This document shows positions 6,666-7,052 of a DNA stretch of 23,310 bases, in pieces. How positions within the stretch are numbered: position 1 is the first letter of the stretch; the number at the start of each line of letters is the position of its first letter. Below the pieces are notes generated by a model that saw nothing but the letters and a program-made list of their open reading frames with translations, had not been told where the DNA came from and ran no database searches. Made by a program: the position numbers and the translations under genes. Source of the DNA: a virus (Duplodnaviria; Heunggongvirae; Uroviricota; Caudoviricetes); the IMG/VR virus record IMGVR_UViG_2531839433_000004. One strand, written 5' to 3'.

Positions 6666-7052
6666 TTATTGGGCTTTAATGTAATTTTTCAACTTTGCAG
6701 TTTGCTCTACAGCGCTAGGAATGCATCCAAACATATTTGCGCATGAGGTTTGAACAACAATTTCGTTCTTATCGTTTCCTAAAGGTGTTTTTACAACCTG
6801 ATATCCAAGCACGGCACTATTTCCAATAGGAGTGTATGTGGAAATTACCGTTTCATCTGCCATCTGAATTTTCCAACCAGAATTCATTGCTATCCAAGCT
6901 TTGGCTCTCGACCAATATGTATCGCATTGCTCTTTACCTTGACAGTAAACTGGTTGTTGAGCTTGTGCGGCAATTTGGGGATCTATTTTCTGAGCACATC
7001 CAGAGATGCTAATCAGAATAGCTGCTGTAACGAATAGTTTTCTCATTGACAT
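6666..7052 (-). CDS. Putative lipoprotein encoded directly downstream of cI (rexAB position)
   Basis: N-terminal signal peptide with lipobox MSMRKLFVTAAILISISG|C. Only a 42-bp gap from the cI stop on the same strand. Confidence 0.6.
   Translation of the reverse strand: MSMRKLFVTAAILISISGCAQKIDPQIAAQAQQPVYCQGKEQCDTYWSRAKAWIAMNSGWKIQMADETVISTYTPIGNSAVLGYQVVKTPLGNDKNEIVVQTSCANMFGCIPSAVEQTAKLKNYIKAQ

Follow-up and report, generated by a model that had tools for sequence, protein, structure and literature searches.

A lipoprotein gene of an uncharacterised family in the rexAB slot of a defective lambdoid prophage

Prophage genes that are co-expressed with the repressor are a proven source of defence mechanisms, as exemplified by rexAB, bstA, sieB and nun. 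The subject of our analysis is a gene in such a position, a small lipoprotein gene directly behind a cI-type repressor gene in 23,310 nucleotides of caudoviral DNA (IMG/VR record IMGVR_UViG_2531839433_000004), a stretch to which we refer, at its whole length, as the window. How does this gene compare with the systems that have been described? Like lambda rexA/rexB and Salmonella BTP1 bstA, it is located downstream of cI and upstream of OL/pL, on the repressor strand and in a mosaic slot, and as for these, expression in the lysogen would be expected from the repressor promoters; the cI-to-N interval is a mosaic hotspot for rexAB and bstA, under a promoter that ranks among the most active in prophages (PMC8585504). 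RexAB, however, is a two-protein abortive-infection system of cytoplasm and inner membrane, with RexA as sensor and a polytopic RexB, and BstA is a cytoplasmic, DNA-associated abortive-infection protein, whereas the cassette in the window encodes a single exported lipoprotein, in which neither Pfam nor PADLOC detects homology to Rex or BstA.

Precedents for exported exclusion factors come from several directions. Ltp of TP-J34, a Gram-positive lipoprotein with helix-turn-helix-like repeats, reportedly blocks DNA injection via the tape measure in Gram-positive bacteria. It is expressed from the prophage, as a moron in the lysogeny module (PMC3952083), and HK97 gp15, an inner-membrane, YebO-like protein, is a prophage-expressed moron of the tail operon (PMC3594210), each of them blocking genome entry rather than adsorption; to neither does a Pfam scan of the window lipoprotein detect homology. 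The Lpp lipoproteins of the mEpimmI phages (mEp021 gp81, mEp010 gp116) are encoded in the structural/tail cluster and, expressed alone, exclude phages using the same receptor, OmpA or LamB (PMC11893012), which makes them the functional precedent for lipoprotein morons in tail clusters. As members of the same family they had to be rejected, since mEp021 gp81 represents a different family of 72 amino acids (aa), and tblastn with the window protein and a relative of it (P0190) matches no mEp phage in the phage collection.

The nearest logic is that of Cor (phi80, N15, HK022, mEp167) and Llp (T5), small outer-membrane phage lipoproteins which inactivate FhuA (PMC3594210). Like these, the window protein is a single small moron lipoprotein that would be sufficient alone and is predicted to reside at the periplasmic face of the outer membrane, and some of its family members adjoin tail genes, as cor and llp do. 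Unlike these, its mature form is about twice the size, presumably contains two disulfides, has a different fold and is conserved far beyond the enterobacteria; PHROG 1119, the family of Cor, matches the signal peptide only (residues 3-31, E=0.06), and no Llp chain is found among the fold matches listed. Lipoprotein morons that are expressed in the lysogen from the rexAB slot are a well-known kind of element, while the protein family is uncharacterised and unrelated to the known exclusion lipoproteins. Our favoured reading, which we hold tentatively and short of even confidence, is that of a lysogen-expressed envelope protection factor, probably for superinfection exclusion, that follows a Cor/Llp-like logic without homology.

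The slot between cI and pL

Judged by its flanks, the lipoprotein gene sits between cI and OL/pL, i.e. in the slot of lambda rexAB. This placement, which the initial annotation had proposed, is borne out by cI upstream and by an OL/pL-like region downstream that repeats the OR operators. The repressor gene (7095..7787, minus strand; 230 aa from the ATG at 7787, in an open reading frame (ORF) open to 7823) encodes HTH_3 and Peptidase_S24 domains (E=1.5e-18) and diverges from a cro-like helix-turn-helix gene (7898..8125, plus strand). Between them, consensus matches only delineate an OR region (7795..7866) with a PRM-like promoter (7823-7795, minus strand), a PR-like promoter (7838-7866, plus strand) and operator sites, namely the palindrome ATACGCTTGCGTAT at 7800-7813 and a related site at 7850-7863. 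On the other side of the lipoprotein gene, consensus and repeat matches point to an OL/pL-like region (6393..6438, minus strand), where a pL-like promoter, TTGATA-17-TATTAT (6421-6393, minus strand), overlaps the left operator copy with its operator-like palindrome ATACGTATGGGTAT (6421-6434). The 40-nt segment 6395-6434 is a copy of the OR segment 7824-7863, and the arm 6417-6438 is the inverted counterpart of 7796-7817.

The gene is the sole gene on an AT-rich cargo cassette. In a blastn comparison with PhiR68_2, a phage of the same immunity, homology extends over 5800-6487 and 7097-7900, and the break-points bound a cassette of 609 bp (6488..7096) that reaches from the cI stop codon to the conserved OL/pL flank. 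The cI-cro segment of PhiR68_2 is 97% identical to that of the window, and the OL/pL flank is common to both; the G+C content is 38% in the cassette, 47% in cI and 52% in the recombination genes. Different two-gene cargos occupy the cI-pL slot in the same-immunity phages PhiR68_2, 4A7 and Perceval, and no gene at all is found there in PhiR34_1 and Turner, so that the lipoprotein gene, present in the window and missing between the same flanks in the latter two, shows the presence-absence pattern of a moron in the sense of Juhala and Hendrix. By these comparisons the slot is a swappable cargo site. The two-gene cargos consist of a ~340-aa protein together with a 149-aa protein, an ASCH protein or a transmembrane protein (L002 1450-2905; L117 1503-2919; L118 1327-2877), a layout that resembles RexAB, and they are candidates for uncharacterised defence pairs. 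Neither Pfam nor PADLOC recognises the 341-aa and 149-aa slot proteins of PhiR68_2, which therefore do not confirm a defence character of the slot. Within the cassette, between the hairpin behind the lipoprotein gene and OL, there are also two exact copies of TTGATAACAATG at a distance of 70 bp (6539-6550 and 6609-6620), of which a partial inverted copy occurs within cI at 7307-7323.

The lipoprotein ORF (6666..7052, minus strand) comprises 128 aa when counted from the first ATG, begins MSMRKLFVTAAILISISGCAQK, and contains the lipobox ISG/C reported in the initial annotation, with the cysteine codon at 6996-6998. Its true start, however, is probably the second ATG (7044-7046), for three reasons: a Shine-Dalgarno sequence, AAGGA (7054-7058, minus strand), is spaced 7 nt from the second ATG and 1 nt from the first, RefSeq/PGAP annotates the gene in its 126-aa form (WP_001228516.1), and close homologues have a length of 125-126 aa. 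The likely coding sequence is thus 6666-7046 (minus strand; 126 aa). The repressor ORF ends at 7095 on the same strand, so that the 42-bp gap first described (7053-7094) holds for the first ATG and probably widens to 48 bp with the second. That the ORF is a real gene, far beyond chance, is evident from its 890 related clusters, a dN/dS ratio of ~0.02 and a pLDDT of 94 for the alignment-based model of its product. The dN/dS ratio derives from a comparison with the family member of locus L026, in which the mature lipoprotein is 91% identical and synonymous sites are saturated (dS ~2.4, dN 0.05, dN/dS ~0.02); on this evidence the gene is under strong purifying, not diversifying, selection.

Is the gene transcribed together with cI? 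The 3' end of cI and the 42-bp gap behind it contain no promoter-like site, and between the two genes there is neither a terminator-like hairpin nor a stable RNA structure (z=0.05). Behind the lipoprotein gene, a G+C-rich 8-bp hairpin (6637..6658, minus strand; z = -2.05), which starts 8 nt past the stop codon and lacks a U-tract, may serve as a weak terminator or an RNA end-stabiliser; in the related locus L005, where the lipoprotein gene likewise lacks a separate promoter, a canonical intrinsic terminator is found in the homologous position, right behind that gene. The window gene appears to rely on the repressor promoters rather than on its own, and co-transcription with cI can be inferred on good grounds from the slot position, the lack of a terminator or promoter after cI, and the recurrence of the family behind repressors, in one case at a gap of 1 bp. 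Rfam detects no put-like or other antitermination RNA near the lipoprotein gene. Between pL and kil (5901-6107), there is likewise no N-like antiterminator ORF; the ~290-nt leader (6107-6393, minus strand) is without Rfam match, a 136-aa ORF at 5901-6311 has no Pfam match, and 4A7, Perceval and PhiR68_2 have no annotated N either.

As for the recurrence behind repressors, family members were found directly downstream of a repressor, on the same strand, in six repressor clusters, with lipoprotein identities of 35-100%; the clusters do not group with one another at an identity of at least 35%. Besides the window itself (100%, behind its own cI at the 42-bp gap), these comprise L005/L025 (83%; cI 22% identical to the window cI, 95-bp gap, with a terminator and then pL and an N-peptide gene following), L026 (83%; S24+HTH repressor), L013-15 (44%; a RecT phage with a 26% identical repressor and the 1-bp gap), L088 (36%; S24 repressor) and L090 (35%; HTH_3 repressor, 17-bp gap). 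Only two of the repressors, those of L005/L025 and L013-15, were compared with the window cI by BLASTP, which yielded the identities of 22-26%.

The lipoprotein and its family

The signal peptide, MRKLFVTAAILISISG followed by the lipidated cysteine, fits the lipobox pattern [LVI][ASTVI][GAS]C, with I-S-G-C at residues 16-19 (6996..7007, minus strand), the lipidated cysteine encoded at 6996-6998 and alanine at +2. The mature protein (6669..6998, minus strand) has 110 aa, 12.1 kDa and a pI of 8.3. Following the +2 sorting rule, by which the absence of aspartate at +2 argues for outer-membrane anchoring, it is predicted to be tethered to the outer membrane and to face the periplasm. An alignment of 89 sequences, on which all our conservation counts are based, retains the lipobox cysteine in 88/89 family sequences and has alanine at +2 in 75 and valine in 7, with aspartate never occurring. 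The several further cysteines mentioned in the initial annotation number four, at positions 37, 43, 104 and 110 (codons 6942-6944, 6924-6926, 6741-6743 and 6723-6725, minus strand), and since all four are kept in 85/88 family sequences and would be exposed to an oxidising periplasm, the mature lipoprotein probably contains two disulfides. C37 is invariant (as is M3, merely as the shared start codon), C19, C43, W47, W53, T72, C104 and C110 are each conserved to at least 90%, and the pattern CX5C...CX5C is specific to this family. W47 and W53, with the motifs NSxxKIQ and NxFGC, would make up a conserved surface.

Structure prediction, which had been proposed as a check on the gene, provided a confident model, but no function could be read from its generic fold. 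While AlphaFold2 (AF2) performed poorly on the single sequence (pLDDT 42; not used), a model built on the family alignment reached a pLDDT of 94.4 and a pTM of 0.82. It has a helix at 25-32, followed by beta35-38, alpha40-57, beta62-65, beta69-72, beta83-92, beta95-103 and alpha114-126; the mature protein is thus modelled as an 18-residue tether, the same length as the family median from lipid cysteine to domain, and a beta-alpha-beta4-alpha domain. According to the model, the domain is of a common two-layer alpha+beta fold. Foldseek searches of PDB and BFVD returned nothing at E<=1e-3, and a profile search of PDB sequences gave no match to the lipoprotein. The nearest folds, Flpp3 (DUF3568), the BamC N-terminal domain and KA1, show a generic likeness only, with 6-14% identity, a best Foldseek E of 0.02 and TM ~0.36-0.47, and no Pfam match to DUF3568 or BamC exists in the window lipoprotein. 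Two of the Foldseek matches are outer-membrane lipoproteins; because identity is only 6-14%, however, the resemblance permits no transfer of function. Among the fold matches listed there is no Llp, no immunity protein of the type VI secretion system (T6SS), no lysozyme inhibitor and no colicin M immunity protein.

At the sequence level, the first impression that the protein belongs to no recognised family has held. A Pfam scan (E<=1) yields only a sub-threshold TM_HPP match, NCBIfam has no match for the lipoprotein or any of its 89 aligned relatives, and PADLOC-DB 2.0 returns only AbiEi at E=0.033 and 11.7 bits, i.e. noise. The sole strong match is PHROG 16082, of unknown function (E=1.1e-67; residues 3-128 against profile positions 1-129 of 130), which also matches the relatives P0008, P0190 and P0052 and the L003 protein; PHROG 4186, likewise of unknown function, matches weakly. 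An exhaustive HMMER search of 1.84 billion cluster representatives recovered 890 relatives at E<=1e-3, each standing for a cluster at 50% identity and most of them 125-135 aa long; at E<=1e-10 the number is 306. The literature contains no mention of WP_001228516, WP_032201349, PHROG 16082 or PHROG 4186. The label 'uncharacterized protein YceK', which one source gives to the cluster of this protein, was rejected, as hhalign against E. coli YceK covers only the signal peptide and a short stretch with 43% probability. An o-spanin or u-spanin was rejected as well, since the gene lies outside a lysis cassette and its globular domain ends in a predicted charged helix (114-126), not a hydrophobic one.

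Some relatives are larger: P0010 (267 aa), P0040/P0058/P0080/P0154 and P0069 feature a tandem domain pair, a C-terminal PDZ domain (in one case with SHOCT) or SH3_3. The fusions suggest that the lipoprotein domain works beside binding modules, PDZ and bacterial SH3 domains being known to recognise peptide ligands and components of the cell wall. They would also suit a general housekeeping or scaffold lipoprotein of the envelope, docking on a conserved envelope machine or on outer-membrane proteins, whose gene mobile elements merely carry and which, in a phage, might aid the phage's own cycle, e.g. progeny release. Distant members in non-phage chromosomal contexts and the second, unrelated lipoprotein gene (PHROG 890, 914 or 14789) that follows in several phages are in line with such a role. 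We nevertheless consider it improbable, more so than any other explanation discussed here: the fold match is generic (Foldseek E>0.02, TM ~0.45), in E. coli the gene is a rare accessory and not part of the core genome, and all examined members of at least 40% identity are on mobile elements.

Distribution on mobile elements and in genomes

Apart from the sites behind repressors, the family has a second recurrent niche in the lambda-type tail-tip cluster M-L-K-I-J, where the insertion points vary. Members are found between M and L (L016), between I and J (L085/86), between K and I (L092/93), before L (L112) and, on a 54.5-kb Klebsiella plasmid with phage tail genes, before I (L022). In Pseudomonas loci (L099-102, L110-111) and in L028, the family member precedes a second lipoprotein gene (PHROG 890), which is followed by I; in L006-8 it comes after mnt-arc-ant (the immI antirepressor), between the tape measure and tail-tip genes, and in Serratia (L011-12) it is located at the prophage end, past a tail-fibre fragment. 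A second, unrelated lipoprotein gene directly downstream, sometimes overlapping, was seen in L099-L102, L110-L111, L028, L084 and L088 (PHROG 890 'lipoprotein', 914 or 14789), and tail clusters may hold two-lipoprotein cargo modules. A further position is the nin region, after hok, with ~55 IMG/VR loci and a version present in 255/5,426 complete E. coli genomes. In L095/98 the family gene lies upstream of an ORF that, judged from its sequence, is integrase-like and follows two genes downstream.

The family is not confined to prophages. ColRNAI (ColE1-type) plasmids of 2.5-8.6 kb in Citrobacter, Salmonella and Enterobacter carry a 70%-identical copy as their main gene outside the backbone, a 46%-identical copy adjoins the integron integrase on a Shewanella plasmid, and copies at 33-35% identity reside on Mycetohabitans megaplasmids; one distant member is in a non-phage chromosomal context. 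Taxonomically, the family spans Enterobacterales, Pseudomonas, Burkholderiales, Caulobacteraceae and a metagenome-assembled genome from Acidobacteriota. From these contexts it can be read as a self-sufficient single gene that is repeatedly captured by mobile elements, at five or more prophage positions as well as by ColE1-type mini-plasmids and an integron.

A pattern of mini-plasmids, an integron and chromosomal singletons is typical of orphan immunity genes. The lipoprotein could accordingly be imagined as an immunity protein or inhibitor that counters an agent acting in the periplasm, such as a bacteriocin or colicin, a T6SS peptidoglycan-hydrolase effector, a lysozyme or an endopeptidase, its orphan gene aiding the lysogen in competition. 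A small periplasmic lipoprotein with predicted disulfides would be of the right kind, being the main cargo of tiny ColE1-type plasmids, a neighbour of an integron integrase and a chromosomal singleton in diverse Proteobacteria; that purifying selection is so strong implies that the target is conserved, periplasmic PDZ or SH3_3 domains occur as fusions in some relatives, and several phages place the family gene beside gpK, the bearer of an NlpC/P60 domain. Yet no toxin gene is adjacent in any context examined, and the recurrent insertion in tail-tip operons and behind repressors more readily fits a phage-centred role, so that we regard an immunity function as unlikely. The two readings can overlap, in that receptor masking by Cor also protects against colicin M (PMC3594210).

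The carriers of the window gene itself bear on another possibility. E. coli 504239 contains the window region in identical form, as a defective lambdoid prophage integrated at icd, with an integrase split by an IS3-family element and a late region cut after ninE. In E. coli S171-1 (L119), the identical cI-lipoprotein module is part of another degraded prophage, which occupies the lambda att site, between ybhC and bioA, and the module is thus kept in cryptic prophages at two chromosomal sites, icd and bio. This retention is consistent with a host benefit, as would be conferred by a Bor/Iss-like or Lom-like lysogenic-conversion factor that promotes fitness or virulence by altering serum resistance, adhesion, tolerance of envelope stress or permeability, with no role in the exclusion of phages or toxins. 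The expression logic would be that of lambda bor and lom, which encode lysogen-expressed envelope proteins (PMC3594210), and human clinical and diarrhoeal isolates are among the carriers. On the other hand, the protein has no homology to Bor or Lom, the Pfam families of Bor/Iss, Lom, TraT and Ltp all being unmatched at E<=1; the family reaches environmental Proteobacteria and their prophages, where mammalian serum and adhesion roles make no sense; and the gene is rare in E. coli, with 12/5,426 complete genomes. Conversion therefore seems to us distinctly unlikely.

Other features of the two prophages may be recorded here. Decay of the window prophage is apparent at 1-2460, 1311-1427 and ~13800-16200, including the IS3-family element, with its ALIL frameshift pseudoknot, in the integrase; its MT-A70 methylase gene has an internal stop, and past ninE the late region meets an inverted lysis remnant (rrrD/essD) and a porin gene resembling ompC. 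Outside the prophage core, Rfam reports a strong IS009 match (RF02111, 213 bits) at 17239-17437 (plus strand). The gene in the cII position (8156-8695, plus strand) is named 'toxin YdaT domain-containing protein' in RefSeq and 'cII' in phage records, and together with the cro-like gene it resembles the Rac ydaS/ydaT pair. In the nin region (11193-12825, plus strand), a phosphoribosyltransferase-like gene (343 aa) overlaps a NADAR-family gene (~203 aa); this could be an accessory or counter-defence pair in ADP-ribose metabolism. The prophage of S171-1 also holds a DUF4041 gene and encodes a protein with a P22AR C-terminal domain.

Protection of the lysogen envelope as the favoured reading

What can be proposed, then, for the role of the lipoprotein in the lysogen? 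We favour envelope protection because the family sits at both sites known for exclusion morons, behind the repressor and in the tail operon, the latter being where HK97 gp15, Cor and the mEpimmI lipoproteins occur (PMC3594210; PMC11893012). In the scenario that we envisage, the repressor transcript, initiated at PRM or PRE, would most likely include the lipoprotein gene as its second cistron, so that the protein would be produced in the lysogen. At the envelope, the lipoprotein would then block the entry of superinfecting siphophages, mainly of the lambda type. One way to do so could be to bind an outer-membrane receptor from the periplasmic side, as T5 Llp and the Cor proteins of phi80, N15 and HK022 do with FhuA; another could be to intercept the incoming tail tip or tape measure in an Ltp-like fashion.

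Several observations weigh against this reading. There is no sequence or fold relation to Cor, Llp, Ltp, Bor, TraT or any PADLOC model, and the family occurs in only 2/50,697 sequenced phage records (tblastn with the window protein and P0190), while accessions of the family are absent from the literature. That conservation is very high even between distant Proteobacteria indicates a conserved partner more than a variable phage receptor; along with the wide taxonomic spread and the distant members in non-phage chromosomal contexts, it is just as compatible with a general function in the envelope or in immunity. Both carrier prophages that we examined are defective and without tail genes, so that no self-receptor logic can be read from them, and transcription of the gene in the lysogen is inferred from the sequence.

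The conservation could be accommodated if the family, i.e. PHROG 16082 together with its ~890 cluster relatives, constituted a previously unrecognised, Proteobacteria-wide group of envelope exclusion lipoproteins that act on a conserved element and not on a variable receptor loop. Tethered to the outer membrane, such a lipoprotein might, for instance, intercept the ejected tape-measure or tail-tip proteins (M-L-K-I-J type) of lambda-like siphophages or neutralise the tail-associated NlpC/P60 protein gpK, and in this it would be a Gram-negative counterpart of Ltp. We deem this bolder proposal distinctly unlikely, but if true, it would explain the extreme constraint as well as the repeated insertion of the gene, be it within tail-tip operons, downstream of repressors, on small plasmids or in an integron.

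If the lipoprotein is indeed an exclusion or immunity factor, be it in the envelope protection that we favour or otherwise, it would provide a new fold, and possibly a new target, for defence at the level of the envelope, and it would help to explain host-range failures of phage therapy in strains with cryptic prophages. If it has no role in such conflicts, it would still represent a domain of outer-membrane lipoproteins that is both uncharacterised and widespread among the Proteobacteria.

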